Shown: positions 7,283 to 62,759 of the stretch, in pieces
Layout: the number at the start of each line of letters is the position of its first letter
Position numbering within the stretch: the first letter of the stretch is position 1
NCBI GenBank assembly: GCA_010093815.1
Contig: ML996569.1
DNA length: 64,000 nt
Direction: 5' to 3' (one strand)
Origin: Pseudovirgaria hyperparasitica
Lineage: Eukaryota
Notes under the pieces: model-generated
Database searches by the model: none
What the model was told of the DNA's origin: nothing
The model's input: only the letters and a program-made list of their open reading frames with translations
Position numbers and translations under genes: made by a program

Positions 7283-7654
7283 GGGCACGGCGACGTCGTG
7301 GTATGGCGCTTGGTAATGCACTTGAAGGATGCCACTAACCCTCCACCCCCTTGTTTCTCGTCCATTTCTTGTGGACGGTGATAATATCACCACGATTTTC
7401 TCATTCCATGCAGGAAGACGAAGTGCATAAGCAGTGAACACACTACTTACATCCAGCAACGACCAGTAGTCCTAGACACTACATATATACCATTACGCTA
7501 CGCTCGAGCATCGTACATATCCCCTAAGAATTGTGCTGCAACCAATCACAAAGACTCTCATGATATACAATGCAGGCACCAGGCACTCAGTGTGGAGTCG
7601 CCTCATATGCACATAATAGCCCTCTGCAATGGAGATACGGAATACCACACATGG

Positions 7655-7655
<1 letters not shown>

Positions 7656-7750
<95 letters not shown>

Positions 7751-7760
7751 NNNNNNNNNN

Positions 7761-7855
<95 letters not shown>
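7656..7855. repeat. (CA)n microsatellite containing a 10-N assembly gap (7751-7760)
   Basis: Pure AC dinucleotide run seen directly; true length unknown because of the gap. Confidence 0.99.
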
Positions 7856-7856
<1 letters not shown>

Positions 7857-7865
7857 TCCCAAGAA

Positions 7866-7935
7866 CATATCCCTATAACCTATCCCTATAACCTATCCCC
7901 ATAACCTATCCCTATATCCCATAACCCATTCCCAT
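7866..7935 (+). repeat. Short ~14-bp tandem repeat (CCTATAACCTATCC-like), degenerating rightwards
   Basis: ccctataacctat ccctataacctat ccccataacctat ccctata... seen directly. Confidence 0.8.
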
Positions 7936-9358
7936 ATGATCCTCTAAGCCACCCCAAGGCACATGCCATAGCTACCTGCTCCTCGCCCATACAAGCCGAT
8001 TGAGCCCTGGGCAGGACAATATACAGGCACGACACACTACTATATCATTGAATATTTACCTTTGGTAAGAGATATAGCTGCCCTCCATGTAATGAATGGA
8101 TAGAGAGAATGAAAGTCGGTCTTTCAATCTTATATCTATACATACGCAGCTACTAATAGAAGACTTGGCCGTTCTTGAGATTCAAACTCTGTCTCTAAAA
8201 TCAAACCATCTACTTCAACTATCTACTCTAAATACATACTTATTAAAGTCCTCCTTATGAAGTTATGCTTGCTTTACTATGATATAACTCTTAAACTAAA
8301 ACCAAAACCATATGATCCTTGGACCTAGTCGAACTATATTCAAAACGAGTTCAAACCCTTCTATACCTTAAGTATCTTTGTACTTATAATAGTCTAGTCT
8401 CTAACACCATGATAGTCTATCTATTAATATATATATACTATGCTACATTAGCCCCCCGTAGTCAGACTCCGGCACATCCAATCCGATTCTATCCATGCAA
8501 GCTCGATCTAGTCAAGTATCCCAACAGAGAACACAACCTCAATCTACACCTCAAGAATGACTACCAAGACGGTAAAATCCCAATCTAATTAGTTCTATTC
8601 CTTATATCAGAGTAAATATGATGGTCCGTAGCAAGCGGATACTTTCTCCCGACGGAGACGTAACACCAGGCTCTATATATAGCCAAATTAGTCGATTCCT
8701 GCAAGGTTCTGGTGCTTAAGGGTGCTCGGCGAGGTTCGGACGTCGAGTCTAGCCAGTAACACGAATTAGGTGGATATGTCAAATATTATTTATATCCATA
8801 GGTTATCACATATTTTTCTTTCCTATTTGAGGAACCTTGATCATTATCTCGCCATGTCTGTTCTTGGTTCACTTCAATTTAACGCAAGCAATCTTAGTCT
8901 CTTACTTACTGTAGATTCCAAGTTCTCACACACACATATATATCTCCAAAGCCACGGATAAATATAAATATAAAGCCCCTGTCTGTAACCACCGTCCCTC
9001 CCCCAATGAGGCAACACAGTGTCCACCACCCACACCCACCCAGCACCACACAACAAGCACACAGCCCATCCACCACCGATCCACACACAGATGCTCACTC
9101 CTGCAACGCAGACGGACATAGACTAGACACCCATAGCGATTAAGTATGTTTAGATGATGAAGAGTGCCTACCTATTATCTCCACCTCTATAAACTATTCC
9201 TCCGTAGCCACATACTAGCCTGTCGCTAGCTTGTCCATCGCCGCCACAAATCGCCCTATCATCGGATCCTTACTAGCTGCTTCTCTAATCTCTGGGAGCA
9301 ACTCGATTTTTGGCACAGCAGGTTTACCTGGCGTCTGTTGTGACTGTCCGAATACGAG

Positions 9359-10659
9359 CTATTGCGGTTGCTGATACGGCTTGGCAGGTGTCTCTGCGAA
9401 AGCACCCATCACTGCAGCCAGATCACCTTCACTTCTAGATTCCTCGCTAGCCTGTAGCACGCCCTTGCCCTTCTCCTCACTCGGCTGCACGACCTGCCTG
9501 CCATGCCATGACTTCATCAACTCGGCCATATTCTTGCGCAGGCCGTACTGCGCCCACTCGGTCCAGGCTCTCAGTTTCATGCTCACGTACCTGCTCACAC
9601 CAGGCAAGAACAGCGTGCGGCTGCGGCCGGCGAGTACGGCTTTGACAATCTCCTCGGCGACGGTCTCGGGATAGAGCGGGTAGTTGACAAAAGGGTCGCC
9701 CTGCTTGAAGCCCTGGAAGAGGGCGGTGCGGGTGTAGCCCTGTGCGACGAGCACGGTGCGGACCTTGGGGGCTTTGTATACGGTTGCGAGTTCGGCAGAG
9801 AGGCCCTCGTGGAAGGCGACGGCGGCGGCTTTGCTGCCGGCGTAGTCGACCATGTTGGGGGCGGTGACGAAGCCGGCGAGGCTGGCCACTGTCACGATCA
9901 TGCCGTGGTTGCGCTGCACCATAGACGGGAGGAGGGCCTGGGTGAGGTAGAAGTGGGCGAAGGTGTTGACGCGGAAGGTCAGGTTGAGGTCGCGCTCGGA
10001 GGTCTCGAGGATGCATTTGCCAAAGGCCACGCCGGCGTTGTTGATGAGAATGGTGGGTTCGCCGAGGGTGGATCGGATGGTGGCTGTTACGGAGGTGATG
10101 GAGTCGGGGGAGGCGAGGTCGCATTTAAAGAAGGAGACTGTGGCTGGAGCTGGGTTTCAAAGTTAGCTATGCGAGGAGTGACAGGAGGTCTGGTGCTCAC
10201 GGTCATATTTGAGGTCTTGGATGTCGAGAACTGCGACCTTGATGCCTCTCTCCGCAAGAAGCTTTACGACATGTGCTCCAATGCCATCACTGCCGCCAGT
10301 CACTACGACAACCTCCTTCTTCCAGTCGTATACATCGTTGCTCCAGTTGTTTGTGACACCGGCGTCGAGGAAGCTGTTAACGTAGCGGAATGCGCCGAGG
10401 ATGAGCAGTGTGCGTAGAGCTTTGAAGCCTCTTTCAGCGTTCAGATTCTTGGCCACGAGAGCTGATCCTTGATTTGTGTATGCGGCAGCAAGCCATAGTG
10501 GGAGAGTGATGAAGGGATTGAGGGCTGTGCGACTGATCAATCGCCCGACAGTATCGAGTGTGACACCTGAAGCTGTCAGAACTTGCACTCTTTTGTGGTA
10601 ATAGTTGCTCTCGAAGGCTTACCTTCACGATTGAGTTGGTAAGGACTTCGGAGAGGCAT
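9359..10659 (-). CDS. Membrane-associated short-chain dehydrogenase/reductase (retinol-dehydrogenase/17beta-HSD-like)
   Basis: TGGSDGIG Rossmann motif, INNAGV, YAGSK catalytic YxxxK; short first exon MPLRSPYQLNRE at 10659 spliced to GVTLDTVGRL. Confidence 0.9.
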
Positions 10660-15862: not shown

Positions 15863-16717
15863 ATGGAATCACAAACTACCCCAACCACCTACCCCGAACC
15901 CCAACAACATCAAGAAGAAGAAGAACAACAAGAAGAAGAACTCAAAACCCTTCCTCCCCTCTTCACAATCACAAAACAACCCAACCCTTCCAAGCCCATC
16001 CTCCTCCCCATCTCCATCCGCAAAACCAACTTCACCCTCTCCGTCCCCGCAATCCACCGACAACCCACCCCCCCAACCTTCGAATTCCGCATCGCACTCC
16101 ACACCGACCCATCCTACGTCCACGAAACCCACATCCAGATCCTCCTCCAAGCTGCCCTCCATAATCCCAGCTTGCAGTGTCTGGCTCTGGATGTCAATTG
16201 GCACTTTCACCATGATGACCCGGGGAGGCGGGCGCTGATTGAGAGGGATTTTGTACGGGGACTTCTTGGCTGTGTTGTTGGGGAGCGGGAGGGGCCGGTT
16301 CGGCTGCGGTTGCGGTTTGATCGGAGGTTGTGGAGGGGGGGTGAGGATTGTGGGGATGGTGATGATGGTGACGATGGTGAGGCCAGTACGGATGGTGAGA
16401 ATAGCAGCTACGACACAGGTACAGCAAAGCCATGCCGGTCATTCTTCACGATTTTCCTACACGCAATGCTCGATATGCTCGACACGCTCGACACGCCGGA
16501 CCCACAAGGCAGGGAGGTATTGGCAAGCGCACTCGATACATTTGAGCATGGGCCCCCGGGCGTGCTTCCGGATGTCGGATATCTTGAGATCGGGAACTTT
16601 TGTGAGGGACGCACGCTTGGGTGTAGTGATAGGTTGTCGGTGGTTTGGTTGGATGCTGAGGGACGCAGGCTTGGTTGGTGGAGGGGGGTGACGATGGAGC
16701 GGTGTGTTGTTAGTTAG
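15863..16717 (+). CDS. Hypothetical protein (284 aa)
   Basis: Long ATG-initiated ORF with a plausible start context; no recognisable motif. Confidence 0.5.
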   Translation: MESQTTPTTYPEPQQHQEEEEQQEEELKTLPPLFTITKQPNPSKPILLPISIRKTNFTLSVPAIHRQPTPPTFEFRIALHTDPSYVHETHIQILLQAALHNPSLQCLALDVNWHFHHDDPGRRALIERDFVRGLLGCVVGEREGPVRLRLRFDRRLWRGGEDCGDGDDGDDGEASTDGENSSYDTGTAKPCRSFFTIFLHAMLDMLDTLDTPDPQGREVLASALDTFEHGPPGVLPDVGYLEIGNFCEGRTLGCSDRLSVVWLDAEGRRLGWWRGVTMERCVVS

Positions 16718-17135: not shown

Positions 17136-20040
17136 CTACGACGCAGACTGCAACCGAGACCCAATATCCCTCGCCACATAGATCTGCCCATACAAATCCG
17201 TCACCCGCACAAACAAATCTACCTTCTCCATCTCCCCAGCCTCCACCTCCTCACCAAGCCTCCCCAACGCCCCCTCCATACACTCCCTCTCATACCCCGT
17301 CAACGCAAACAAATCCCCCTTCGCACGCCCCTCTTCCCATCCCCCCTCCCCGTCCCAAAACTCCGGAAAATCAACACTATTCACATTCCCCTCCTCCCGA
17401 TCCCGCCCCACAGACCCAAAGTCATTATACTGCCGACACAGCGTCGCGAGATGCCGCATCCCCGCCTCCGCATAATACCCTGCCCGCGCACCACCGTACA
17501 CATCCCGCCCCGCCGTCCCAATCAGACAGCCGTAGAACCAGAACGACACGGGACAGCTAGTGTGGTTCGCAGACGTGGTGCTGACCCAGGTATGATACGT
17601 CTTGGACGCCGCATACCTGCGTTCAGATCCTGTGTCTGCGCTCCGGAACCGCGCGTTGTCCTCGATTTGCTCCATGTGTGCTTGGAGGAACGCGTCCATT
17701 TCGCGCCGTAGTCGGGTTTGCGCTGATGCGGGGCTACGGAGCACGGTTGGGTGGTTAAAGAAGTGCGATGTGTATGCTGTGAGGACGGTGGTGATTTCGA
17801 CGAGGGTGTCGCTGGTGCCGGAGTCGGAGTCTGAGTCGCTAGGCGTGGGCGTGTCGATTGGTCGTGTTCCGTAGGCGGGGGAATGTTTGGGGGGTTCGTC
17901 GTGCTGTTGTGTGGGAGTGTCAGTGGGAGGTGTGTGTGAAAGGTCGGGCGTGTGGCAGATTTGGCGGATGGAGTGGCGGACGCGAGCGCGGTCGGTGGGG
18001 CTGAGGGTGTCGATAACGGATTCCATGTACTCGTCGACTTGGTAGTTTAGGAGGGAGATGTGCATCATGGTCCAGAGCTGGCTGGCGTCGAGAGCGTTGG
18101 TTGTCATGTTTGACGCAAGCCATGTTACGGGGATGTAGGTTAGGTAGCCCCCTTTCATTGCGGTTTGACGGGGGAAGATGTCGTGTTGCACGGATTCCAG
18201 CTTCTTTGTGTAATGGGAGGCTTCCACGATGGCGAGCTTTATGAGAGTTGGATTGGTCTTTGCGAAAGCTGGGAGTTTGGAGAAGAACTTGGCCATCTTT
18301 TCCATTCCCAGTTGCGCAGGGAGTGTTGGGGTCACGGGTATAGATGCAGTCTCAGATGCGACGCTTGCGGCTACGAGGTACACCGTCTGGAGCGACGGCG
18401 ACGAGTATGTCACTTTCTCGATCCAGATCTTGTCTGGCTTAACATTCGTGCCGATGAGGCTGTCCAGGAAGTGTCTGCCTTGGACAATCGCTTGACAACC
18501 TCGGAGCGTGCTCTCCATGTAGTCCAGGCGAGCCATGTGGCATAACGCGAGTATGGCATAAGCTGACACTTCTGCTTTTCCTCCCTCCCAGGATCCATCA
18601 CTATCTTGCGTGACAATAGTAAGGCGAGCCATGTTGAGCAGAATCTGCGGTATCCGGGACGTGAGCCTTGACTCCAGTGTAGCTGCGACTGGATGCTGAA
18701 GGAGCTTTACGAAGACTATAGCCAGCAGCATCGTGGAGTAGTATGGGGATATATTCTAAAAAGTTGAGCTTGGATTCGGCATGACTCGGATACACTATAA
18801 CGCACCCATTTGTCTTTTGGTAGACTTCCAGTCCATGCATCACACAGACTTGAGACTATGCTATTGATCTCAGCCACATGTTGAGAAGCATCTGCATCAC
18901 TAATGAGTGCCAGGAGAACATTGCAATTCGCGCTGAAGCTTGGGTTGCGTTCCGAACTATACGTTCTGAACAAGCTGTCAGTGCCAAATCGTTCAATGAG
19001 AGCAGACACGGGTGGTTGTCGACCAACTAGTTGCAACAACAAAACTGCTTTGGCAGTATCGTCTGCATCCTCAAGGAAGCCAGGTCCTGCGACAGAGTGA
19101 GCTCAAATTCCAGGAAAAAGCCACTCCTGTAAAACATACCATAGCCAAGACAGCCACCATTTCTATCTAATCCGTCCTGTAAGACGTCTGCAAGGTACAT
19201 TACGTTGTCTTCACCCAAATCTTGCACTGTAAGCCCGCTTTCCAGCAGCGTGGTCAACACCCACGACATCTCAAAGTAAGTACTTGGAAATGCACTGGGA
19301 AACGAGCCATTTCCTTTTCCGGCACCGTCTACAAGGGCCACGCGGAGATAAGACTCTGCTCCGTCATCCCACTTCGTAGCATTCATGAGATATGCTGCTG
19401 TTGATGAAGGCGAGCCTAACATACTACCATGAACCACGTGATGTGCGACGTTATCAAAGTCAATCACGCCCTGGAATGCCTCTAGCGAATGCAATACGGT
19501 CGTCTGTTGTGCGCCGTACAACACAGCTGGGTCAAACTTCCCCATCTTCTGTACGTGCAACTGCAAGAGAGAGTCCGGGATAGGCAGATCGACTCCTTCC
19601 TCGGCGAGCTTCTTTGCGATCGCCGGAACAATCATCTCTAATCCGACCTGGTCTGCCTTTTCGACTTGCCATGTTGTCAGAGCTAGCTCTAACCAGGTCC
19701 GCGATGGGGTGATACGTTGGAGCAGATCTTCATCACCACGGAAGCGCTCATCGTGTTTGTTATGGTGGTACAGAGCAAGGAGTCCGGCCAGGGTGTTCAG
19801 GATGCCATCTGTTTCCGATCCACCATCCTCCCAGCTCCCACATCCCTTTTGGGAGCTCAGGAGGAAGTCGAAAGCCTCTGGGAAGAGATACTGGGGATCT
19901 CCGTCACACGAGGCCTTTCGCACCATGGATACCCACGCAGTATCATAGATGGCACTGGACATGGATCCGATTGGCTTTCCATGTTTAGAAGCAGAGGCCA
20001 GTGCGTCGACCAGCTCACTGGCGTTCCCTCTTGACGTCAT
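17136..20040 (-). CDS. Bifunctional class II/class I diterpene synthase (fungal CPS/KS-type), ~933 aa, 3 exons (20040-19140, 19086-18806, 18755-17136)
   Basis: SSAIYDTAW, QxxxGSW (QW) motifs, LHSLEAF, class II DADD (19058-19069), class I DEYME (18021-18035), NSE-type RQYNDFGSVGRD, C-terminal VTDLYGQIYV; the exons sum to an open 2802-nt frame. Confidence 0.95.
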
Positions 20041-20773
20041 GATTGGGCGGGTTTTCTAGTAAAGTTTGATCGAGACTGGAAACGTGTGGTGCTGCATATG
20101 GAGGTATGCGGAAGGCTGTACGAGGGCAGATCTATTTGACCTGGCTGGAGACTGCATGATAAACTCAGGATTGAGGATACTACCTGCACAGCCGACTTTC
20201 AGGCAGATCTGCCAAGTGTCTGATAGGTTTCTCCGCAGATGCATTATCGTCTTGGACCTGCGATGGCCGGTCTGGCGCGGGCAGCTGGGTCATTCTAAGA
20301 CGAGGTATCAGGGATCTTAGAGGAGGCATGGGGTTTTGATTGCTAACCACGGCTGAAGTATGTTGGCTGACGCGTTGGCTGCTGGGGGGATTTACTAGGC
20401 AGGAAGACGTGTGATTGTGTGTCCGAATGACAATCGAACCTCCGTTGCGTGTTGGTGACTTTATGCCAGGGATATGCAGTTGGCTTCACGGCGATCAAAT
20501 CTTCTCTAAGAACAATGAAGCGAGACTGTTAGGTCCTACATGGGTAACGTTATCCGGCATTCCATGGTAGCGTCTGGGGTCAACAAGCGAAGCAAGGGGT
20601 AAAACCGGACCTCGCGACCTTTGATCCGAGGACTGCTCGATCTGATCCGATACAGACTCTGCTATTGAAACACAACAGCTTGTTGACAGGTCGGTGGTCG
20701 GCGCAGTTTACCCCTGCAACCCATGACACTAAGAAGGTTTTCTACTGACAGATATCAGAACAGAATAGCAAGA

Positions 20774-22880
20774 ATGGCAGAAACGGAGACTCCGACCGTG
20801 GACCAGACGCATACTGGTATTTTAAGATTCCCCATCTACTAATTATCGTCATGCTAATCGTATGTCAGAAAAGTCGGATCTGGCAAAAGACCTGACTGAG
20901 CCCACGGACGAGCGCAAGATACGAGGTTTCAAGGTACTTGTGCATACTCAGAGCATTTGGGCTATAGGCTATAGCTTATCGGTCTTACAGTGGGTTCTCA
21001 TCGCAGTATTGATACTGTCAAACTTACTCTTCTACGCCGTGGACAATACGATTGTTGCCGTGATACAACCTGTGAGCATCTCCTTCTGCCATAGCTACCA
21101 GAATTTGACATTTGTAGGCGATCATAAAAGCCTTTTCGAACGTCCAAGATCTGCCATGGGTCTCTGTCGGGTTTGTCGATTCAGTTGGTCTTCGTACCCC
21201 TACTTACAGAACGATAGCTTTACGCTTCCAGGGTCAGCATGTGCGCTCATTCTAGGGAAGCTGTATGGGGTGTTCGACGCCAAACTCCTATATATTGAGG
21301 TATGTGTGCACCTGTACTCCAGCACAAGCATCTAATGCGTACAAGTTCTCGCTGCTATTCTTGATCGGCTCAGCTATTTGCGGCGCCGCGCCGTCAATGA
21401 CAGCCATGATCTTTGGGCGAGTCATTGCCGGCCTAGGAGGCACTGGCATGTATCTCGGCGCATTGACCTTGATCAGCGTTCTCACAACGAAGAAAGAAAC
21501 GCCCACATATATGGGATTCTTGTCGCTTGTGTGGGGCTTTGGTACCATTATAGGGCCCCTGATCGGTGGAGCATTTACTGATAGTTCTGCAACTTGGAGA
21601 TGGGTGAGTTGCTCTAGCTTGAAAGTGGCCCTTATTGAGATATACAGGGTTTTTATATCAATGTTGTCGCTGTTGGTGTGAGTATTCCAGTGTATATCAC
21701 GATCCTACCCGGATATACCCCAGCACCTAGCTCGGACTTCGGCTCGAGGATCAGATCAGTAGACTGGTTAGGCGCCATACTAAGTGCAGGAGCATTTACG
21801 GCAGGTATCATGGCAACGAGCTTCGGTGGTACCCTCTATGAATGGAGTAGCGGACAGATCATCTCGCTTTTCACGGTTTCTGGGCTGTTGTTTGTGGCTT
21901 TCTTTGTGCAGCAGCACTTTGCTTTCTTGACAAGCAGTACCTTGAGGCTTTCACCTTTCCACCTACTGAGAATCAAGGATGTTTTCATCTGCTTTGTATG
22001 CCAAAGTAAGTTGTTGTCCTCGATTGTATTACTAGCACTAACAATGAAAGCGTCTGTGGCTTTGATAGTACCTGTCCCTTTGTACTACATTCCACTATTC
22101 TTGCAGCTCACTCGCGTATGTCTTTCCAAGATTGTCATCTTCAGTACTTTTACTCTACTGATTACCCGCAGGGCGCCTCTGCCATCGAAGCAGGCGTGAA
22201 GCTCTTGCCGCTCATCTGCACGTGGGTCTTCGCCGGCATATGTCAAGGTAAACTCATGGGAAAGCTAGGATGGTACCAGCCATGGTTCCTCCTCGGAAGC
22301 GGAATGAATCTGATCAGCGGTGTATTCATGTCACGCATCGACACAGACACAGACTTAGCTACGATATATGGTCTACAGGCAGTATTAGGTCTCGGTCTAG
22401 GCTGCTATGGACAAGCAGGCTACGCTGTTGTTCAGCAATTCGTAAAGCAGACTGAGATGCATGCAGGCATATCTCTCATGCTTGTCGGTGAGTGCGCTTG
22501 TGCGGCAGAAGAGCTTTGTGTAGCCCTCACTAACACACTATTAGCTCAGCTTACGGGGACTGTGTTGGGACTCGCAATAGGAGGCGCAATTTTCCAAAAT
22601 GTATCAATTGGTGCGCTTCACCGACTGCTGCCCACCCTGTCTGAGCGCGAAATCAGTGGTGTGATTAGCGGTGTGGGCATTGATCAGCTGAACGTAGTAA
22701 CTGCTGAAGTGCAGTCGGAGGTACGAGTGGTTTTGACCAATGCTTGTATAGAGACCTTTACAGTGATATATGCCTTTGCTGCACTTGCGTTCCTCGCAGC
22801 ATGTTTCTTCACGGTAGGTCTACAAGAACATAACTTCATAGCTCTGTGCTAATATGATGTAGCCAAAGAAGATCTTTTAG
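20774..22880 (+). CDS. MFS drug:H+ antiporter (DHA2/14-TM type), many introns
   Basis: DNTIVAVIQP, LGKLYGVFDAK, GSAICGAAPSM..MIFGRVIAGLGG, GPLIGGAFTDSSATWRW, VDWLGAIL; hydrophobic helices across ORFs 20862-22852. Confidence 0.92.
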
Positions 22881-22982
22881 TAACAAGTTTACAAAGCTGA
22901 GCAGATATAGGTTCATTCAACATCATCCATTTCTGGTAGATCTAGCTATGCCTTTCGTTGCATTATATCTGATCAACTACTC

Positions 22983-24826
22983 TTAGACTTCGAATGCTAC
23001 GATATCCGGGTCTTCGAGGGTCTTCCTTCGAAATTCCACTTGCGCTTCAGGGTCAGGGAATATGTATTCATGTAGACATACATTCTTGGGTCGTCCTTGG
23101 CCTTCAGGGTATCTGAAGTCATAGTGGAGAATCAGATGTGCCAATATAATCTTGATAGTGTTTGAGGCGAAAAATCTGCCTGGACAGCCTACCACAGTGT
23201 TAGTATTGTATGCCTAGTCCTGCTAGGATGCGAAAGGCGGGAAGTAACTCACTAAATTTCCCATGGCCAAAGTGCATGTTGTCCTTGTCGGTCGTGGCAA
23301 ACTGATACTTGTGCGCATTTCCAGGCTCATCTCGTCTGCGATAATGTCTGAAGCCGTCGAACTCGAGCGGGTATCCTGTGACCGACTCGTCTTGAGCGAT
23401 AGGGACTATGGGCATGACGAGATGAACTCCTTTTGGGAGGAACAAACCATCGGATAATGTCATAGGCTCCATGACCTGTCGTTTGAAACCGGCTGCAAGT
23501 TTTTAGCCTTCCAATCTCAACTTGGGAGTACCGTACTCACTCAGACTTGGTGGGTTCAAACGCTGGCTTTCTCGCATGAAGCTATCAAGTTTGCGCATCC
23601 GCGTCAATGTTGTTTTCTTCCATCCATTATCTGTTCTCAGTGCGCCTAGGATCTCCTCGCGAAGGTCTTCCAAATACTCAGGATGCTCACAGAGATCGAA
23701 GAACGCCTGAGCGCATGCCATACTTGTGGTATGTACCGACGCCATTGCCAATACTAGAAGTCTATGCACCAGCTTATCCGGGCGCGCGTCGCGAGGAGAT
23801 GTCGCTTCTTCCATCATCCACTGCAAAAGATCATTCGGCGGCTCATAAGTGCTTGACGGGTCCTGGATATGGCGAGCCAAGGCAGCCTGCCGTTCTTCGA
23901 CAATCGGAACCACAAGTCTTAGCGCTCCACGGAGATTCCAGGACACTTTCCAGGTCCAAGGGATCACCCATGCTGCGAGGCCTTTCAGGTAGTTGGGGAC
24001 TAGTCTCATCAAGATGACACATTTGAAGACGTTTTCGGGATACTTCACGTTGATGGCGAGCCACTCCGGATTGTCATACATGGGTGCGACGGCTGTGCGC
24101 GCAAAGTTCCGGGCAATGAGTCTGACAATAACATCGAATGCTTTGTGCTTTGCCCATTGAGTCTCAGAAGAGGCGAGTTCGACTGGAAGGGATTTTCGAA
24201 TCTCTTTGCAGATTGGCTGGATGAATGTGCCCAGCTTGGGCGTTAATCTCGTCTGTATTGTATGTGTGTGCAAGTCGCCTTCAAGCAAGATGTCAATGGT
24301 TGAAAAGGCGCCCTGAAAGTTCTACGTTCCTTAGCTTCAAGAAAATACGTGGAGGCTGTGAATCAAACTTACATCGATATTCGCAACGATGGAACTGAGC
24401 TTATGTTCAGGCAGACTGCGTAACTCATCCACGTACTTATTAGGGATTACTAAGATCTCGTTGCCTATAACCTTGAAGATCCCAGATTTGAACTATCTGA
24501 TCAGTGGCAGCTTCATATCAAAACAGTCATTAACTTACTTTCCGGTAGCCTTCTCGGATAGGCGTGTTTGCATCTCTTAGAAATTCCAACCGATTGAACC
24601 ACGGCCATTTGCTGCCAATAACCGGAGCATCTACCAGTGCATTCCCAGATGTCTTAAGCGAAGGAATGACCAAAAGGACCAGGATAATCAGGCTTAGGGA
24701 GAGGGCGAGATACCCAGAAATTCTCTTATTTTTCGATGCGTCGATGAATAATGAGCCTGGTAAAGATCCAGAGTTATCATCAGCAGCCAATCTGACAAAG
24801 TTTGTGATATTCTCGATGTGTTCCAT
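22983..24826 (-). CDS. Cytochrome P450 of the terpenoid-oxidising type (ent-kaurene oxidase/CYP503-CYP512-PaxP-like), multi-exon
   Basis: ASVHTTS I-helix, KLDSFMRESQR, TLSDG..LPKG, FDGFR, heme motif FGHGKF(S)CPGRFFA reconstituted across an intron. Confidence 0.92.
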
Positions 24827-25981
24827 ATTGTCGCCCGTCTAATTTAGCGATCGGATTTTCCTCAATGTCTTGCAAGTCTGTGTGATGATGAGACAAACCT
24901 TGTTTCAGCTTACCAGAATGGTATATGCGAAAGATATCATCGAGAAGGGCGACATTACATGATCATCGCTTCGAAGACCCATTTCTGAATGCGCAGGACT
25001 AATGGTAAGAGTAGGTCATCTGTATCTCCTTCAATCCTCTTATTGGACCATGATACCAGATGCTTGCTTAGGAAACGCCACGCCGTTGGCAAGTGCATAT
25101 GTCGGTACTTGGTCGTATATGCAGAAGGGAGGCCGTACGACTCCTATAAGTTGCAGGGGTCTGTATTATGTTACTGGGCAATCTAAGCTCATGAGTAAGC
25201 TTCGTTCTGGCCATAGAAGAAAGCTCTACTTGTAGGTTATAAGGTATGTCTACGTATACCTTGATCAATGCGGATAAAATAACTCTCATCGCAATCGAAA
25301 CCTATATAACTCATAGTAACGACCCCTATCAAGCTATGGATAGTCTTACGCTCGGTTACAGCGCCCAAAACATACATGACCTATCTTTCATCGATCAAAC
25401 ATGGATTATTGGTGATCATGCATGTAAACGTCCATCAGAATCTCAAAGCCCGAGTAGACCATGCTGTTGCATATCGATCCTTGCCAGGGAATACTGTTCC
25501 TGGTTCATCCATGTAGAGCCCTTCCAGCCTTTGTATCGGGACACACATGCCGGAAAACCATGAGCATCTGGCACTCGGCGCTGACTGAGCCGTAGGATTG
25601 CGCTCACGTATGCACTGCTCCCTGTTGACACGATGATACCAACCGTCGCATCCGGTGTGTGGCACTCGATCTGATAACGCCACCCAACGAACGGCACGCT
25701 GTACTCTGACTATAGCGTTATGTGACGACATACTGGAAGGCTGGATTCTCATGCCTGAGCCTTCCCTACTCATAGGGCGTTGTATGTGCGAGGATAGCCG
25801 ATCCCAAAACCAGTCAGCTATTGAGTTATCAATGCTGTGATGCCAAAAATAGCAATGGGGATCTTGGAACTTTTGGGGTCCTTTTTTGAGGCATGTATAT
25901 AGAATACACAGTCCAGTGGAGGTCAGACTCGAGCTTGAATCCCTTTTCTCAAGTCGACCACCTTCATCATACGACGAAGCT

Positions 25982-27209
25982 ATGTTATATCAGCGCACAA
26001 CTATTGATAACCAGGCAGGTGGTTTTCCTGCACCGCCTGGTTTCGAGAAGAACCTAGATAATCCTGACAACAATGCTCTCGCTTCTATACCCTCTGGATG
26101 GACTTTGATATCGATTGCCATCATACTGCTTATTCTGCGATTCGTTGCAAAGGTGTCTACGACGGTCAAGGAGGGGAAGTTCAACATCAAAGTCATCCGA
26201 GTAGAGGATTGTAAGTCTGACGTCAAGAATAAATTACTGTAGCTGACTGAGTTCGAAAGGGCTTGCCCTACTCGCTGTTCTTTGCGGCATCGTGCGCGTA
26301 GTACTGGTAACCTACATCGTACTGGACCTTGGTATTGGGCGCCATATCTGGGATATTCCTGGCGAGAATTTTCCGAAGATATGGCACATCTTTGACATTG
26401 AAGACATGATCTACTGCTGGGGCATTCTTTTCGCCAAGCTGTCCATTCTGTTCTTCTACCTCAGCATCTTTCGGATCAACAAGGCATTTCGGATATGCGT
26501 ATACGTGACGATGGCAATCACCACTTTATACCTTCTAGTCTCCTTCTTGACCTACGTATTCCATTGCGGCGTTCATACCTGGGTTGGTATCGCGACCAAA
26601 TGTCTCGATGGAATCACACAAGAGATTGCGATCGGCGGCTTCAACATTGCGACCGACCTTGTCATCATGGTCCTACCTTTACCTCTGGCACTAAGATTGC
26701 AACTCTCACGCAAGAAAAAGATTGGACTTGTCATAGTGCTTCTGCTTGGATCGTTCACGATCATCGCCGCGGTTTTACGGCAAGTTTTCGCCATAACCAC
26801 CCTCTCGACCAGCGACCAAACATGGAATACATCAGAGGTCGTGGTATGGAAGACAGTCGAAATGCTCGTGGCTATCATCTGCTGCAATATTTTGACGGGC
26901 CCATTCATTCTCCGGTACTTACTTGACACCAAACTTGGCTCCAGTTTGCGCAGCTTGTTGACCAAAGCGAGCCCTTCGTTTGCAACAAGTGTGCTTGGAT
27001 CTGACCCAAGCTCGCATCGCTACCCTGGGAAACGATCAGATAATGGAAGTGCAACAACTGAGAGCTATGAGGTTAATGATATCAAAAGTTGGGCAGTCGC
27101 AGCACCCGGTAGATCGGATAGTCATGAGCAACTTACGCGGCCGTCTACTGAGGGGATCAAAGTCACACGGGATTATCGTATTGATACCCATCAAGCTGCA
27201 AGAGTGTAA
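25982..27209 (+). CDS. Pth11-like/rhodopsin-domain integral membrane protein (no CFEM domain)
   Basis: PAPPG..NLDNP N-terminus, GIGRHIWD, KLSILFFYLSIF, NIATDLVIMVLPLP..LQLSRKKKIG, W..VE..VAIIC; intron ~26211-26259. Confidence 0.88.
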
Positions 27210-27461
27210 GAAAGGAAGACTCTGGCCAGTCTTATCTGAGCTGGGCGTTCACGTATCTTGCTGGGGTGGGTTATTGGAGTTGTGGGTTGGTCTCCTGTTG
27301 ATACCATTTCTATGTTTGTGTGAAAACATGTAAACTCGCGAAAGAAGTTCACATTCAGAAGACTATTATCATTATGTTAGTAGTCTGGCCGTGCAGCTCA
27401 TACAAATGTTTGCCAGCAGAGTCTAAAGCCCCATAGCCTATGAACAACTTACAACCACGAT

Positions 27462-29155
27462 TCAAACCTCCACTTGTCGCTCCACAAACTTGACAAACCT
27501 CTCATTCCTCTCCCAAAGGGCATACGTCCGTTGAGAATCCCACTTCCTCTCAATCGTTTCTCTTAACCGCCCTTTATCAAGATCACGAGAAGGCATCTCG
27601 GGGTCAAACACAAACAAGAGTCTTGCCAGAATGAGCCTCATCTCCGAGTTCGCCAGAAACCTTCCGATGCAGTTGCGCGGTCCAACGGAAAATGGCTGCA
27701 AGACCGCCTTTTCATCGTTCTCGAACGTCGATGCTGTAAATTCTGGGTCGCTACTGTCGCATGTGAAGAGTGGCGACTCGGCTGAGAGCCACCTCTCAGG
27801 TATGAAATGCTCGGGGTGGGCGAAGTTAAGTGGAGAACGATATGCAGGTAGTTGAGGTACACCCACATAGGTCTAATGAGAGAAAACCAGTTAGTATACG
27901 ACTGATATCGTGCATTGCAAGTGACCCACTCCAGGAGGAATTGTAATTCCATTGATGATATTTCCATGTGCAGGAACAATACGAGGTACTTGTCCAGGCA
28001 CCGAAGGCGCCATCCGCGAGTTCTCCGTAAGCACAGCTCTCATGTATTCCAGTTCATCGACGGCTTTCAGCGTAATCTCTTTCTCCGTGCGAAATCGTGA
28101 TCTAATTTCGCCGCTCAACTTAGCTAATTTACTTGGATGCTGAAGAAGGTGCGTGAATGTTCCCAGGAGCTGAGTAGCTGTAGTCTCCGAACCCGCAAGT
28201 ACAAGTACTGTGGACGACGCTTCGATTTCAGGCATTGACATAGGCTGTGCTGCCTTTTCGTTGCTGTCCAAAATGTATTTGAGGAAATCTGGTCTTTCGG
28301 TTCTGGTAGCCACTCGCTCGCGGACCCATTGCACCGAGAGATCGAAATGGGCATCACGCTCTTTAAAGGCGCGCTTTGGAACCATCTTGATGAGTAGCCA
28401 GAACAAGGATGGGTAGAACTTAACTGCAGACATAATGCAAGCAGCTTTCAGATTGCTGAACAAGTAGGATACCCAGTAATGGTACTTCTCCTCTTCGATA
28501 CACCCAAAAGGCTTCCCAAACATGAGATCTCCCACAATATCGAATGTGCAGTATGTTATCCAGTCTGTAATGTTCGTCACATCTTGAGTTCTGATCTTAT
28601 CGATCAGTAGGGTAACATATCTTTGGATGAGATCTTCCTGGGCTAGCAGTGCTGTAGGAGAAAAAGCATGATTCAGTATCTTCCGTTGCCTTGTGTGATC
28701 ATCCAAGTCTGCGTTGATGACCGAGAAGACTCCGTTGGGTGTCTTCTCCGTCCATATCGGATTCTTCGTGAACTCTGGTACACCAACCCGGTGGCTGTAG
28801 ATATCCTTCCACGCTGCTGCTTTGATGAACGAGAGCTCGTTGGGGGCTAGGCGCACGATCGGTCCGTATTTCTGGTGGTATCTGTGCGTGTCATGTACGA
28901 GATCTCCTCTAGCTAGAGAGATGGCAAATGGAGCTCGCGATATCGTCCATAACCAAGGTCCTGGATATTTCGCCAGGGGATGAAAGTATCGATTATACAC
29001 AATGCTGTAGATTAAGTACTAGTCTTTCATGTTACCAGCATTCTCTTTGAACTATGATCAGTCGAAATGCTTACGGAAAGTGAAACACCACATAGGATCA
29101 GGATAGCTGATGGCCATGTTTGGATAAAATCAGGAGCGAATGACGACGCGGACAT
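27462..29155 (-). CDS. Cytochrome P450 (CYP65/Tri11-like), 3 exons
   Basis: YFHPLAKYPGP, YGPIVRLAPNELSF, AGSETTAT, ENSR, PERW, FSVGPRNCIG. Confidence 0.93.
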
Positions 29156-29712
29156 CGTGGCGACACTTTTAAGAGCTTCCAGATGAATGTATCGATCATA
29201 ATTCAGTAATATCTGTCTACGAGTACTGCCCAATATCCAATCTTCAGTGTTGAGTCTGCTTTCTCACTGTCATTAGCGCCGGAGTAGTATCTACTTACGG
29301 CTACGTGATTTTGTGGATTCGAGGAAATGTATAACCCGAACTATACTACTAAATCCATTGGACAGACCGTCTTTGGAGTGTAACACAGTAGGATTATGGT
29401 ACCGGACACGCCAGACAAAGCTGTAACTGGATCGAAGACCTTAGAGGAGATCAGGAAACTGTTCCGCCTACCATGCTGATTAATCCTTCTGTTAACGGCC
29501 AATGCCCCTACTAGCTTGCTGTCAAATTTGAGGTTTCCTCCATATAGACTGGATCACGCTCAGCCACCTCACCATGGGCACGTATGAGAACAGGGCTCAT
29601 CCGGCTCTTACACCATCGCCATGACGAGCAAAGTGGTCGCGCTAATTCGAGTCACTCCTGACCGAACCCACTCAAAAGCATCCACTGTCTTTATCATCTC
29701 ATTCAGCTAGAT

Positions 29713-30509
29713 CTATGCAAACGCCAACTCCCGGCGCTGACCCCAGAAGTCGCATGGCAGAAATCGCCATGAACTAGCATGCTTCCGTGCAAACCAGTAG
29801 CGCACAAGATAATAAACAAACCCCGGAACAGCTGGAAAACGATGGATTCCACCTTCATAGTCCTTATCTACAAGACCGAAAAATAGTGGGAACATCTCAT
29901 CGGACTTGGCTGGCTTCTTGGCTTTCTCACTCCTCTTGAAGATGTCCATTAGCTTCGCATCGTCCAGATAATTTAGGCTCAACAAATCGGATATCTCCGC
30001 TTTCAGGTGCACTTGGAGAGCATCCGTAAAGCTTTCGATAATACTACAGACCTGTACCCCTGAGTACTCTGTTGGCGATGTTGTTTTAGCATACTCGTGA
30101 AGACGGCGCACCCCGTCCGTGAAATCGTGGTGCTGTTCGATGCTCTGCTGAAATAGTTCGGGCTTCCCAGCAAGCTTTGTAATTTCTGGGAAGAGAAACT
30201 CTTCTTCGGCCTCGTGATGTAACTCCAGCAAGTCGCAGTAGCAGTGTATGTAGAATAGAAAATCTGCAGCGTCGGTGCCGTTGCCGGCCGGGACTTGTTT
30301 GGCTTGTAGGTATATGGAGTTTATGCCGCGTATCAGCACATTGTGGACCTGCGCCATATCGTCGGCAATGTGGATCGCCGCATGACTTTTCTGGTTACAG
30401 GGTCAGCTCCCATATTGTAGCTGACCAATCCCCGACCTCATACCGTATCTTGCGTTTTGGAGGGCGTCTCTAGTAGAGGCCAAGGCTTGTCTACCCAGGG
30501 CTTCGACAT
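29713..30509 (-). CDS. Hemerythrin/HHE cation-binding domain protein (intron 30391-30443)
   Basis: First exon MSKPWVDKPWPLLETP; MAQVHN, HHEAEEE, EQHH and HLKAEI His/Glu clusters typical of di-iron hemerythrin-like folds. Confidence 0.85.
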
Positions 30510-31115
30510 GGCGCTGCAATCCTTCGGTGATAGGCGTCTTGGATGATATAGTGGACGTCAAGGTAGTAAAAGACATGTCGACAGAATACCGTATAAGTAT
30601 CCGCAGTCGACGAAGCACACTAAGCCTAAAGCCGCTAGTACAAATGTGAAGGATTGTTTGTGTCACGTACATCGAGATGACCGCGGCGGGATTTGTGGCA
30701 CAGCAGGGCATGATCAACCAATATGTCAGCAAATAACACCTCCAACATCACTGGTCTGTCTGATTAATCATATAAATGGGCCATTTCATGTTACCCCTGT
30801 TACCACACCACATAGCTGACTAGCGGGTTCCGAGGGATAATGATACCCGGGGTCAGACCCTGGACGCGGTATATACAATCTGGCTTACGTGTGCGCATAG
30901 TATTTGTGACCCGGACATAGTTCCTCGAATATTCGGCGCTGCATATTGCTTGTTGTCAAGTCTGGCGTAACGTTAGCCGCCGTAGACGATAGCATTTCGC
31001 TTTCAGCCTTGCTTTTCCACAGGAGCGAAGGAATAATGACGACGACTGACATCTTACACAGAACTAACCGTGTCGCGTTTCACTTTAACTCCGAATCACC
31101 ACATGTTGAATAAGG

Positions 31116-32885
31116 ATGGTGAGCTCGACGACAGTGTTAGCAGTCATCTCAGGCTTGAGCTCGCACGCGTTATACATACGCGGAGAATGGCATCTATTAG
31201 CGCCCTGGCTTGTGCCAATATACGCCACCATCGCATTCCTGGTCGAAATAGTTGTATACTTCTATGTCCTCCCAGAGAGTCAAAGCCATAGGTTGCAGTC
31301 GTCCCTGGCTGAGACTGAAAGTCTAATATTTTTCCACTTCCTCGCATTGTACTCTAGCATTGTTGTCTATCGCGTGTTCTTTCATCCGCTCCGTCGGTAT
31401 CCTGGTCCTATACTTGCAAGAATAACGAATTTCTGGCATGTATACAAATGCTTGGATGCGAAGAACCATCTCCTGCTCGAGAAGTTGCATGAACAGTATG
31501 GACCCATAGTCAGAGTGGGTAAGTCCTCGTTTCCATACTCTTTTTAAGACCTTCTCATTCGTATCATCGCTCATGTAAGCTCCAACGTCTGTGTTTGACC
31601 GGCCTTGACAGGTCCTCAGGAGCTGTCCATCGTTAGCCCAGACATACACTTGGCCATGAGTGGAGCCCGAACCAAATGCACGAAGGCTGCTCTATACGAT
31701 CTGACTCTGCCCTCAAGAGGCCTGAATGTGACAAGAAACACAAGCGAGCATGACCGTCGTAAAAAAGTCTGGGATCCAGGTTTCACAGCTTCAGGTGAGT
31801 CGCTCGTTGAGAGAATGTGCCTCCATACTGATCTAGTAGCCCTGGAATCATACCACGGCCGGATAGTCTTCTATGGAGACCAGCTCTTGCAATACCTGCA
31901 ATCGAAACAAAACCAGCCGATAGACGTTCGCGAATGTTTCTACTGGTTCGCATTCGACATAATGGGAGACCTAGCTCTCGGCCGCTCCTTCAACATGCTC
32001 CGCAATGGCCAGTGGCACAACGTCCTAGCAACCATGCGCAAAGGTATGAGCATGCTCGGCCCACTGACACCTGTACCATGGCTTGCTCGAGTCGGAATGG
32101 CGATTCCAGGGGCGATGAAAGATTGGAACAATATGTGCAAATGGTGCGAAGAGAGAATGCGAGAGCGCCTGCAAATGGGGGTGAAAGAGCTTGATATATC
32201 GCACTGGCTGATTGAGGGCTCGCGCAACGGAAACGGAGATTATGACTGGGACTGGCTGAGTGGCGACGCGCTCTCGATCATTACGGCGGGAAGCGATACT
32301 GTGGCTACGACGCTTGTGTTTGCATTCTATGTACTTGCTTTGTATCCGGAAGAGCAACGCAAACTTCGGAGGTCACTGCCTCCGGCGGTAGATATTGGTT
32401 CGCAGGAGAAGCTTGCGCAGATGGCGCATCTCAATGCCTTTTTGAATGAAGTTCTCCGATTGTATCCTGCAGTACCATCCGGCGGATACCGTATCGTAGG
32501 CGAACAAGGCTTGCCGATAGCTTCTCTGAACACAATCATACCTCCAGAAACAATAATCACTGGCCCACGCTGGAGCATCTCTCGACTGGAGAGCTGTTTC
32601 GAACAAGCGCATGACTTCATACCAGACAGATGGACCACACGCGCGCATATGGTGAAGGACAAGAGGGCCTTTGTGCCATTCAATCAAGGACGATACAGTT
32701 GCATTGGCAAGAATCTGGCGTGGATAGAGCTGAGACACATCCTTGCTTTGTTGGTCAGTCGATTCGAGGTTACCTTTGGGCCCGGCGAGGATGGCTCGAG
32801 ATTCCTTGCAGATATGAAGGATACATTTGCTGCTGCACCTGGAATGTGTTCCTTGGTCTTCAAAGATATTGGTTCGAGCGTCTGA
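31116..32885 (+). CDS. Cytochrome P450 (third cluster P450; FtmC/CYP628-like), 3 exons
   Basis: FFHPLRRYPGP, YGPIVRVGPQELS, AGSDTVA, EVLR, PDRW, FNQGRYSCIG. Confidence 0.93.
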
Positions 32886-36267: not shown

Positions 36268-38607
36268 ATGACTATCCCAGACGAAGTCGACATCATCGTA
36301 TGTGGTGGAGGATCTTGTGGGTATGTACTCTCACCATCCTGTCGATGATTATAGCCAATCAGAAAATCGCAGTTGCGTGGTCGCTGGCCGACTGGCCAAC
36401 TTGGACCACAAGCTCCAGGTCTTGCTGATCGAAGCTGGTGAGAGTAACTTGAACAATCCATGGTACGTCCTTATCTGACAACCCTGTCGGACAACTCGAT
36501 AACTGTACTCACACATCTCAGGGTATTCCGTCCTGGTATCTTCCCGCGTAACATGAAGCTGGATAGCAAAACGGCATCGTTCTACTACTCCCGCCCGTCG
36601 GAGTGGCTCAATGGTCGTCGTGCCATCGTACCAGCTGCCCATATTTTGGGAGGAGGCTCCAGCATCAATTTCATGGTAATGAAGATCAATCAGCCACAAA
36701 CATAGTACTGACATACCCAGATGTACACCAGAGCATCCGCTTCGGACTACGACGACTTCCAGGCGAAGGGCTGGACCACCAAAGAGCTGCTACCTCTCAT
36801 GAAGAAGCATGAAACATATCAACGTGCATCGCAGAATCGTGACATCCACGGTTTCGACGGCCCCATTAAGGTCTCCTTCGGCAATTATACCTATCCAATC
36901 ATGCAGGACTTCTTGCGCGCCTCGGAATCTCAAGGCATTCCCGTAACCGATGACCTTCAAGATCTTGTCACTGGCCATGGTGCCGAGCATTGGTTGAAAT
37001 GGATCAATAGGTAGAAGTCTCGCTCTCCTTGACCTAGTGGTGGACTGACAGTTGTGAAGGGACACTGGTCGAAGGTCAGACTCCGCCCATGCATATATCC
37101 ACAGCACGCGTTCGGTCTATGAAAACTTGCACCTTGCGTGCAACACCAAGGTTGAGAAGGTCATTCTCGAAGGCAATCGCGCTGTCGCTGTACAGACAGT
37201 GCCCACAAAGCCACTCCATCCCCAGGAGAACAAGACAAAGGTGTACAGAGCCCGGAAGCAGATAATTGTCAGTGGCGGAACTCTAAGCTCCCCATTGATC
37301 CTTCAGCGATCTGGAATCGGTACGTCCGTCGTTTTTCGATAGTTTTCGATGCTGAAAGTTCCAGGTGACCCGGAGAAGCTCCGCAGAGCTGGTGTCAAAC
37401 CACTTGTTGACCTGCCAGGCGTCGGCCTCAATTTCCAGGGTACGTGAAGATGCTATTTTGAAGCACAACAGAAGCTGATGATGCAGATCACTACCTCACC
37501 TTTGCACCCTACAGAGCTAAGCCACACATCGAGTCGGCAGATGATTTCCTTCGTGGGGATCCAGAAGTCCAGAAGCGGGTCTTCGACCAGTGGAACATTA
37601 ATGGAACAGGACCTTTGGCGACCAATGGCATCGAAGCCGGTGTAAAGATTCGTCCTACTGAAGAGGAATTGAAAACGATGGACAAATGGCCATGCAGTGA
37701 GTTCAGCAAGGCGGGATGGGATTACTTCAAAGACAAACCGGACAAGCCGGTCATGCATTACAGTGTTATAGCCTCATTCTTTGGCGACCACATGACGATC
37801 CCACCAGGCAAGTACTTCACCATGTTCCACTTCCTCGAGTATCCGTTCTCTCGTGGATCCACTCATATTCAATCGCCGAATCCGTACGAAACGCCGGACT
37901 TTGACGCTGGATTCATGAATGACGCACGTGATATGGCGCCAATGGTTTGGGGATACATCAAGTCTCGTGAGACAGCGAGGCGCATGGACGCGTACGCCGG
38001 TGAGGTGACCAGCCATCATCCTATCTTCCGATACGATTCAAAGGCGCGTGCGATGGATATGGACGTCGCAACCACAAATGCCTACGCCGGTCCGAACCAT
38101 ATCACGGCGAACATCCAGCATGGTAAGTCACGGCCACAGACGGAGAGATCTTGGCTAACAAGAAAAGGTTCCTGGACGGAAAGAGTCGAAGCAGGAAAGA
38201 CACCCGACAAGGCCTTCCTCAACTCTAATCAGCAAGAAGTACAGTATGATCTCGACTATACGAACGAGGACATTCGTGCGATCGAAGAATGGGTCAAGCA
38301 CCACGTCGAGACAACCTGGCACAGCTTGGGCACGTGCTCTATGGCCCCGAAGAATGGCAATTCGATTGTCAAGCATGGTGTGCTTGATGAGAGATTGAAT
38401 GTTCATGGCGTGAAGGGCCTTAAGGTCGCCGATTTGTCAATCTGCCCGGACAATGTTGGCTGTAACACGTATTCGACGGCATTGCTGATTGGAGAGAAGT
38501 GTGCCATGCTGACCGCTGAAGATCTCGGATACTCTGGGAGTGCTCTGGATATGAGAGTACCTAACTACCACGCTCCAAGAGAGATCGCGGGTCTGTCCAG
38601 GCTATAG
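36268..38607 (+). CDS. Peroxisomal alcohol (methanol) oxidase, GMC oxidoreductase family, many introns
   Basis: MTIPDEVDIIVCGGGSCG FAD-binding start, LGGGSSINFMMYTR, ETTWHSLGTC, PDNVGCNTYSTAL, C-terminal PTS1 -SRL; TATA at ~36148. Confidence 0.96.
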
Positions 38608-62510: not shown

Positions 62511-62759
62511 GCACTCTATGTAATTGAACTTGACCACGTAGAAGTGGTTAGGAATCAGGGTCCCACGTTTGCAATCTAAATAAGTGTAGCTAGATTAGAA
62601 TACACGTATTAACTATAAGATAATCTAAAGCTACTAGTGAATACATGCAAGGAGAAAGCTAGCCAAGTATCGTTTTCTATGAATATACTATTAGAAAGAG
62701 GTCTCAAAGAGTAGTCTTAATTAACCACTATATAATTTACTAATATAAGGCGTCTATCA

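Follow-up and report, generated by a model that had tools for sequence, protein, structure and literature searches.

Seven adjacent genes at positions 17136 to 32885 of a 64,000-nucleotide stretch of contig ML996569.1 from the fungus Pseudovirgaria hyperparasitica (assembly GCA_010093815.1; the whole stretch is referred to as the window) are best explained overall, with reasonable probability, as an expressed secondary-metabolite gene cluster for an oxidised labdane-related diterpenoid, and it is highly probable that the product belongs to this class. The genes and their predicted products are the following:

17136 to 20040, minus strand: predicted bifunctional class II/I labdane-related diterpene synthase (933 aa; exons 20040-19140, 19086-18806 and 18755-17136)
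20774 to 22880, plus strand: major facilitator superfamily (MFS) transporter, putative exporter (535 aa, 10 introns; PF07690)
22983 to 24826, minus strand: cytochrome P450 of the ent-kaurene-oxidase-like clan, candidate C-4 methyl oxidase, called P450a (544 aa, 4 introns; PF00067)
25982 to 27209, plus strand: PTH11-like (fungal rhodopsin-domain) seven-transmembrane protein (392 aa; Fung_rhodopsin PF20684, 3e-45)
27462 to 29155, minus strand: cytochrome P450, candidate ring hydroxylase, called P450b (526 aa, 2 introns; Pfam P450)
29713 to 30509, minus strand: hemerythrin-like (HHE) protein (247 aa; Hemerythrin PF01814, 8.7e-12; C-terminal extension of about 80 aa)
31116 to 32885, plus strand: cytochrome P450, divergent partner of the hemerythrin gene, called P450c (543 aa, 2 introns; PF00067)

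All seven genes are real and were transcribed in one sample. Gene models built from positions 15000-36000 splice without stops through GT-AG introns; they form the divergent pairs synthase/MFS, P450a/PTH11-like and hemerythrin/P450c, with P450b unpaired, and each of the three P450s carries an ExxR and a heme-Cys motif. Evidence of transcription comes from two runs of one sample (X3 and X4), of which the run type is not recorded and which were judged to be RNA solely from their splice joints. Among the joints listed, GT-AG joints were present in the X3/X4 contigs at 15 of the 22 predicted introns (all 10 of the MFS gene, intron 4 of P450a, the one of the PTH11-like gene, both of P450b and the one of the hemerythrin gene), and 7 further joints beyond those listed equal the number of predicted introns left over. 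Contig pieces moreover stop at the predicted exon borders of the synthase, P450a and P450c, the last of which is covered by contigs. Since none of the 15 listed joints occurs in the DNA run X1, the spliced joints mark the genes as transcribed; contig depth was not used for ranking them. Stop-free models and spliced contigs together confirm what the initial annotation had read from the letters, namely seven adjacent genes, three divergent pairs, intact frames and catalytic motifs. GC content and GC content at third codon positions (0.52-0.61 for the latter) overlap those of most flanking genes, so that no compositional hint of recent transfer was seen.

The synthase contains the motifs DADD (residues 307-310), DEYME (635-639) and NDFGSVGRD (838-846), which correspond to the DXDD, DEXXE and NSE/DTE motifs of fungal bifunctional enzymes (PMC4617483), and it agrees with fungal bifunctional class II/I labdane-related synthases in all three motifs and in the three-domain architecture. 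Pfam names the other six products (MFS, three P450s, Fung_rhodopsin and Hemerythrin), the synthase being the exception: neither the model nor the full 927-aa NCBI protein has a match at E<=0.01, and the enzyme was therefore identified through homologues, a PDB match and a structural model. The NCBI protein KAF2759880.1/XP_033602331.1 (P0088) is contained letter for letter within the gene model, whose last exon is 100% identical to an NCBI protein annotated 'Ent-kaurene synthase, partial [Pseudovirgaria hyperparasitica]'. In the PDB search the class II half matches the Penicillium synthases of normal copalyl diphosphate (CPP), PfCPS and PvCPS (phmmer E 5e-106). The AlphaFold model (pLDDT 87) finds its best fold match in PvCPS (9q3i), on which its class II part superposes with a TM-score of 0.91 by target, and it also matches full-length plant three-domain synthases. 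Motifs, PDB match and predicted fold identify the protein as a putative bifunctional class II/I labdane-type cyclase and support the earlier call of a labdane-related cluster with a copalyl diphosphate/kaurene synthase (CPS/KS)-type enzyme.

A normal-CPP tricyclic (iso)pimarane-type skeleton is our best guess for the product, held with slightly better than even confidence because of the sequence motifs of the synthase, its clade and the products of characterised Aspergillus and Cordyceps enzymes. Fungal ent-CPP synthases use a His-Thr base dyad with the Thr in an SGT motif, and A256 is among the residues at which PvCPS differs (PMC12393454). The window synthase has Ala250 (in PSA), HTSCP and WIEKVTY, and its residues aligned to the PvCPS residues of that paper are E135, H184, A250, F256, W260, D309, W394, W505, E507 and Y511. 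The genome holds two such synthases, the window enzyme and one paralogue on contig 12, which has PGT, HVACA and WTSKTAY in common with the Fusarium gibberellin synthase.

Homologue searches with the last exon, each scoring 8000 candidates, listed 207 matches, and 103 of these proteins (850-1130 aa, self hit omitted) were combined with 21 loci, the paralogue and the query in a FastTree phylogeny of 126 rows with SH-like supports, no bootstrap and no approximately unbiased test; PbACS, PaDC2 and PbcA themselves are outside the tree. The query falls within a 114-row clade (support 100) with An18g02710 of A. niger, apart from the gibberellin rows and a named aphidicolanol synthase, and is separated from the ent-kaurene synthase clade by branches of support 100; the contig-12 paralogue groups with the Fusarium enzymes (100). 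The query has a branch length of 0.71; its sisters (100) are P0094 and DSL72_006216 (P0139) of Monilinia vaccinii-corymbosi, at 40-42% identity, and nothing was found on the Monilinia enzyme among the papers listed. A phylogeny of this kind, proposed by the initial annotation as a check, thus sets the synthase beside An18g02710 and outside the gibberellin clade, whereas its closest sisters are uncharacterised. An18g02710, which we infer to be AnCPS-PS since it is the one A. niger diterpene synthase of PMC4617483, shares this clade yet only 36% identity with the window synthase. The product of AnCPS-PS is isopimara-8(14),15-diene, and other characterised Aspergillus enzymes likewise yield isopimaradienes (PMC13644022); Cordyceps CiCPS-PS does so too, at 34-39% identity to the Aspergillus enzymes (PMC10999977).

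Several observations count against reading the skeleton in this way. No close characterised enzyme exists: the best full-length identity is 44%, to Trapelia coarctata (among 11 relatives compared), and that to the Fusarium gibberellin synthase is 34%. The values are similar for a Periconia protein named aphidicolanol synthase (35%) and for the best non-self match over the whole last exon (42%, among the 207 matches listed). Identity is a poor predictor of the product here, given that CiCPS-PS and AnCPS-PS agree in product while being 34% identical (PMC10999977). PSA and HTSCP-like motifs are also present in basal tree rows, one of which, the named aphidicolanol synthase, has PSA and HTACT, and for this reason these motifs exclude the gibberellin type but cannot split normal from syn or tricyclic from tetracyclic products.

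It is accordingly conceivable, though we consider it unlikely, that the same cluster makes a tetracyclic, rearranged or hydrated product via normal- or syn-CPP, such as a phyllocladane, aphidicolane/stemodane, rosane, cleistanthane or manoyl oxide. The long branch of the synthase and the uncharacterised state of both its sisters would allow this, as would the variety of products in the family, among them the manoyl oxide and pimara-8,15-diene of Magnaporthe (PMC10512213). The query lies, however, outside the basal rows with motifs like those of the P. betae and P. amygdali enzymes (Table 1, PMC4617483), and it keeps F256 and Y511, where plant syn-CPP synthase has Tyr and His.

For the (iso)pimarane-type product, a pathway can be proposed in conditional terms. 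Geranylgeranyl diphosphate (GGPP) would be supplied by the single stand-alone GGPP synthase (GGPPS) of the genome, which lies on contig 1 (G000:C1:643k) among unrelated genes; other PF00348 matches in the genome look like farnesyl diphosphate synthase, Coq1 and terpene-synthase-linked domains. With D309 in DADD as the site of protonation, the synthase would turn GGPP into a copalyl diphosphate, most probably normal (+)-CPP, whose ionisation by DEYME/NDFGSVGRD would lead to a tricyclic (iso)pimaradiene and not to ent-kaurene. In the manner of ent-kaurene oxidase, P450a might then convert a C-4 methyl group (C-19 or C-18) into an alcohol or acid. Ring hydroxylation, from which a lactone or ketol may result, would be the task of P450b and probably of P450c, and the MFS protein would export the product. 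The PTH11-like protein, with 7 hydrophobic segments and no CFEM domain by Pfam, appears to be a customary companion of such clusters and is assigned no role.

On contig 12, the gibberellin-type synthase has a divergently oriented P450 beside it, with which P450a shares 36% identity. P450a groups with the three contig-12 P450s, P450b and P450c standing across a 100-supported branch. Fungal kaurene oxidases belong to CYP503 (PMC7758035), and P450a probably belongs to the ent-kaurene-oxidase-like clan (CYP503/CYP68). P450b is sister (100/99) to the synthase-linked P450s of two loci (L052/L071) at 48-49% identity and is at most 36% identical to 14 P450s of its own genome; the wider clade (100/99) contains synthase-linked P450s of five groups and 1 of the 14 own-genome P450s tested, in a tree from which one duplicate row was dropped and for which locus L093 gave no usable piece. 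These sequence relationships support the placement of P450a and P450b in groups that recur beside diterpene synthases. We take P450b to be CYP65-like. Two more P450b-related P450s occur near terpene synthase genes (G000:C11:282000-289500 and G000:C4:619400-629300), one of these synthase genes being apparently a prenyltransferase-cyclase chimera. P450c is 25% identical to P450a and P450b and at most 29% identical, over long alignments, to synthase-linked P450s, and its best own paralogue (34%) is situated on contig 9 in an unrelated neighbourhood.

The gene content was compared with loci from a metagenome scan (57 loci, 56 with a synthase match, forming 25 groups, of which 15 have a locus of >=14 kb) and with published fungal regions. 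In the 15 independent related locus groups, P450a-like genes recur in 13, PTH11-like genes in 6 (counted with the low-complexity filter off and with Pfam confirmation), P450b-like genes (>=38%) in 5, MFS genes in 4 and GGPPS genes in 3. A GGPPS was found in 19 of 56 fungal diterpene synthase regions and three P450s in 12 (Fischer 2015, PMC4617483), and in the same source PTH11-like genes occur in the A. niger, T. reesei, C. globosum, Botrytis and R. rufulum regions and MFS genes recur. On this basis five of the seven genes are a familiar set, and having no GGPPS is the norm. The initial annotation was right that the window holds no GGPPS (no match with the genome's own GGPPS as query, and no PF00348 on contig 5), but its description of the gene content as unusual does not hold for this lack, for the three P450s, or for the MFS and PTH11-like genes; it holds for the hemerythrin/P450c pair, the only part without a counterpart in the loci and regions compared. 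The hemerythrin gene is the one real oddity of the cluster content, and the word 'hemerythrin' is absent from nine supplements of PMC4617483. No Zn2Cys6 pattern was found in the window by a crude regular expression that is blind to introns.

Among known systems, the A. niger, T. reesei, C. globosum and Botrytis regions are closest in kind, since they too combine a bifunctional synthase with two to three P450s and a PTH11-like gene and list no GGPPS (PMC4617483), a likeness at the level of gene classes. The Chaetomium globosum region (diterpene synthase, glutathione S-transferase (GST), MFS, three P450s, PTH11) shares the MFS gene as well (PMC4617483). In contrast to the A. niger-type regions, 17136-32885 lacks a GST, methyltransferase, hydrolase and multicopper oxidase and has the hemerythrin gene in addition; the seven models fill the interval, leaving no GST beside the synthase, and a GST is present in a cassette on contig 1. 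The pbc/sphaeropsidin system of A. nidulans resembles the window in its bifunctional synthase and P450, and its products are oxidised isopimaranes (PMC13644022). However, pbc includes a GGPPS, HMG-CoA reductase, GST, short-chain dehydrogenase/reductase (SDR), methyltransferase, one P450 and a Zn2Cys6 regulator, and the non-P450 genes in this list are absent from 17136-32885. Arthrinium sacchari AsCPS/AsPS and Cordyceps CiCPS-PS (proposed for myrocins) convert normal CPP to sandaracopimaradiene and are flanked by P450s as here, but a GGPPS is present in their clusters and, in A. sacchari, separate proteins perform the two cyclisations (PMC10999977). The aphidicolin cluster of Phoma betae (GGPPS, ACS, PbP450-1 and -2) shares the bifunctional synthase and P450s (PMC4950769), whereas the window has no GGPPS, three P450s and a synthase outside the clade of the Periconia protein. 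No gene-for-gene equivalent was thus found among the clusters compared, in keeping with the earlier statement that the gene set matches no characterised cluster. By uncharacterised we mean that no description was found in the literature covered, many such clusters being described in subscription journals.

Whether all seven genes act together is less certain than the class of the product. We consider it rather probable that P450c and the hemerythrin gene are co-regulated with the remaining genes, but part of the evidence speaks against this. A single RNA sample cannot demonstrate co-regulation of the seven, and the words shared by four upstream regions (two 8-mers against 1.56 expected from shuffles) do not rise above chance. 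In the 15 locus groups, hemerythrin was found in 0 (with two hemerythrin profiles) and P450c was the best-matching class for a P450 in 0, although flanks of at most 10 kb make both zeros weak, given that in the window the synthase start is 9.7 kb away from the hemerythrin gene and 11.1 kb away from P450c. The synteny check suggested by the initial annotation came out in favour of P450a, P450b, the PTH11-like and the MFS genes and gave no counterpart for this pair. The true cluster could consequently comprise five genes (synthase, MFS, P450a, PTH11-like and P450b), with hemerythrin/P450c belonging to something else, such as a detoxification module; we regard this as a possible but unlikely alternative. 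It would fit the failure of either gene to recur in related loci and the distance of P450c from synthase-linked P450s (<=29%), together with the unrelated contig-9 surroundings of its nearest own P450. The packing is tight, however, with 557 bp from the hemerythrin stop to the P450b start. X3/X4 contig cover continues through P450c and is near zero by 34.5 kb in both runs (weak evidence from one sample), and a second hemerythrin gene in the genome also adjoins a terpene synthase.

The hemerythrin-like protein (PF01814 score 45.9 bits against a cut-off of 25.3; identical to NCBI P0225) has a 4-His/2-Glu set of predicted di-iron ligands, H38, H80, E84, H109, H150 and E154. Across 83 aligned sequences no variation occurs at H80, E84, H109 or E154 and very little at H38 and H150, and in a profile alignment to YtfE the HxxxE pairs coincide over the aligned stretch. 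Its structural model (pLDDT 97) places FBXL5 (Z 9.9, rmsd 2.9, 142 aligned) and an Rv2633c homologue (Z 9.4) near the top of a fold search, values that are middling for helical bundles. Foldseek gave no match at E<=0.001, and NCBIfam and a single-sequence PDB search returned nothing specific. The protein resembles YtfE, FBXL5 and mycobacterial Rv2633c in its ligand spacing and perhaps in a four-helix bundle, but the fungal family, for which the literature covered gave no function, differs from them in an extra conserved C-terminal part, which is barely covered by the fold matches (mostly residues 16-168), and here in its position beside terpene cyclases.

Three PF01814 matches exist in the genome, the window gene included. 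One (27% identical) is located among housekeeping-type genes; the single close paralogue, which aligns in two pieces at 43% and 53% identity and belongs to another subclade, lies <1 kb from a class I terpene synthase. That locus (G000:C12:761000-771700; L079, L080) contains a P450, the class I terpene synthase with intact DDxxD and NSE, the hemerythrin-like gene and a PTH11-like gene, followed by an O-methyltransferase, and so holds the same four gene classes as the window.

Most likely the hemerythrin-like protein is a candidate redox accessory, handling O2, peroxide or nitric oxide beside three P450s, and is not essential for the skeleton; we rank this above a catalytic role. In the latter case, which appears improbable, it would modify the terpenoid either as a non-heme di-iron enzyme or as a partner dedicated to P450c, introducing a double bond, cleaving a C-C bond oxidatively or decarboxylating the substrate to a nor-diterpenoid. 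The complete ligand set and the conserved C-terminal extension beyond known hemerythrin folds would suit such an enzyme, as would the 606-bp divergent promoter common to the hemerythrin gene and P450c. In addition, the only close paralogue also stands beside a terpene synthase, a P450 and a PTH11-like gene, and the chance of such proximity for two other hemerythrin genes and eight cyclase genes under random placement is ~0.2%. That figure ignores, however, the gathering of secondary-metabolism genes in variable regions, and none of the 15 locus groups has a hemerythrin beside the synthase. The family is also broad (895 representatives at E<=0.001, the named ones from ascomycetes), and the Bogoriella megaspora relatives of synthase and hemerythrin have locus tags ~4,300 apart in the one locus-tag comparison made. 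Members are induced in Phlebia when oxygen is low and in Fusarium by xenobiotics. Another fungal cluster already known to contain such a gene is that of dmxR11, whose product is a polyketide (cryptosporioptide; PMC9890505). No literature pairing hemerythrin with diterpene or terpene clusters was found, most subscription journals being outside the coverage.

Completion of the product in trans by a cassette without a cyclase on contig 1 is more doubtful still. This cassette (G000:C1:2832000-2842600; L111, L112) comprises a P450a-like P450 (41%), a GST, a multicopper oxidase, a PTH11-like gene and a P450b-clade P450 among housekeeping genes, and looks like an An18g02710-type cluster that has lost its synthase or acts in trans. 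Most of the gene classes that surround An18g02710 in A. niger recur in it (PMC4617483), both of its P450s keep their heme motifs, no synthase match occurs in C1:2810001-2856000, and the genome has just two such synthases. Nothing direct speaks for joint use, however, and the cassette could instead work with the synthase on contig 12, have diterpenes of the host or rust as its substrates, or be a leftover.

A gibberellin (ent-kaurene) cluster, which the automatic NCBI name 'Ent-kaurene synthase' and the kaurene-oxidase clan of P450a would suggest, is scarcely credible, given a synthase without PGT/SGT, HVACA and WTSKTAY and outside that clade, and only one of three P450s from the kaurene-oxidase clan; here too the initial annotation, which had set the locus apart from gibberellin clusters, was correct. 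The gibberellin clusters of Fusarium, Sphaceloma and Phaeosphaeria share the enzyme architecture but differ in the base-dyad and helix motifs and in clade: Ala250 (PSA) replaces the Thr of the SGT-type motif, and P450a alone represents the CYP503/CYP68 group, of which three or more P450s would be expected. The paralogue on contig 12 belongs to a gibberellin-type cluster (G000:C12:1029309-1041564; L010, L011) with a PGT/HVACA CPS/KS, three P450s of one clan and no GGPPS match nearby, a set resembling the short Sphaceloma GA4 set (PMC7758035).

To the left of the cluster lies a separate group of metabolic genes, which begins in G000:C5:1230001-1240000 (L082) with a sulfotransferase-like gene, an alpha-galactosidase, a P450 and an anthrone oxygenase and goes on at window positions 586-10618 with a P450 (586-1992), a gene with a DAPG-hydrolase (PhiG) domain (~2500-3700), an APH-like open reading frame and an SDR. 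An open reading frame at 15863-16717 (plus strand, 284 aa), convergent with the synthase and covered by contigs of the spliced runs, is outside the cluster as drawn; it has no Pfam or NCBIfam family and weak Atlas look-alikes only. On the right, the flank from 36272 to 57000 is ordinary (an alcohol-oxidase-like glucose-methanol-choline (GMC) oxidoreductase, APP1 phosphatase, MFS, peptidase S58, SDR, trehalase and a large catalase). The GMC gene (36272-38607), which is presumably a conserved alcohol oxidase, ends in a peroxisomal SRL and was treated as outside the cluster. From 62001 to 64000 the GC content falls to 39% and then 30%, as AT-rich DNA or repeats affected by repeat-induced point mutation would give. 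Elsewhere, a large cluster of mixed type at G000:C24:280000-300000 (L108, L109) combines a terpene synthase domain and a reducing polyketide synthase with three or more P450s, an FAD oxidoreductase, an SDR and a gene resembling trichothecene acetyltransferases. A TRI5 family search gave no match anywhere and is uninformative.

Fungal labdane-related clusters are few and under-studied, and domain-based miners can miss a synthase such as this one because it has no Pfam match; such synthases were located through local BLAST and are absent among those listed from antiSMASH in PMC11600568. The cluster is a practical target, since its synthase represents a branch without a characterised member and its genes are spliced and expressed in at least one sample. 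Pseudovirgaria hyperparasitica is a mycoparasite of rust sori and pustules (PMC3317363), and no literature on its terpenes was found by title, the one passage seen concerning swainsonine (PMC8403587); an antifungal product is plausible for a producer living on rust pustules. It would be a long shot that a family of terpenoid-tailoring di-iron enzymes has been recruited twice here beside cyclases and P450s, yielding a diterpenoid that is new in oxidation pattern or skeleton and serves the fungus against its rust host. If the hemerythrin-like protein were catalytic, this would assign a function to a large fungal family (the 895 representatives) and add a class of oxidase to those that tailor terpenoids; if not, the cluster joins the other uncharacterised ones of a familiar type, with a synthase from a branch without a characterised member and one odd gene pair.

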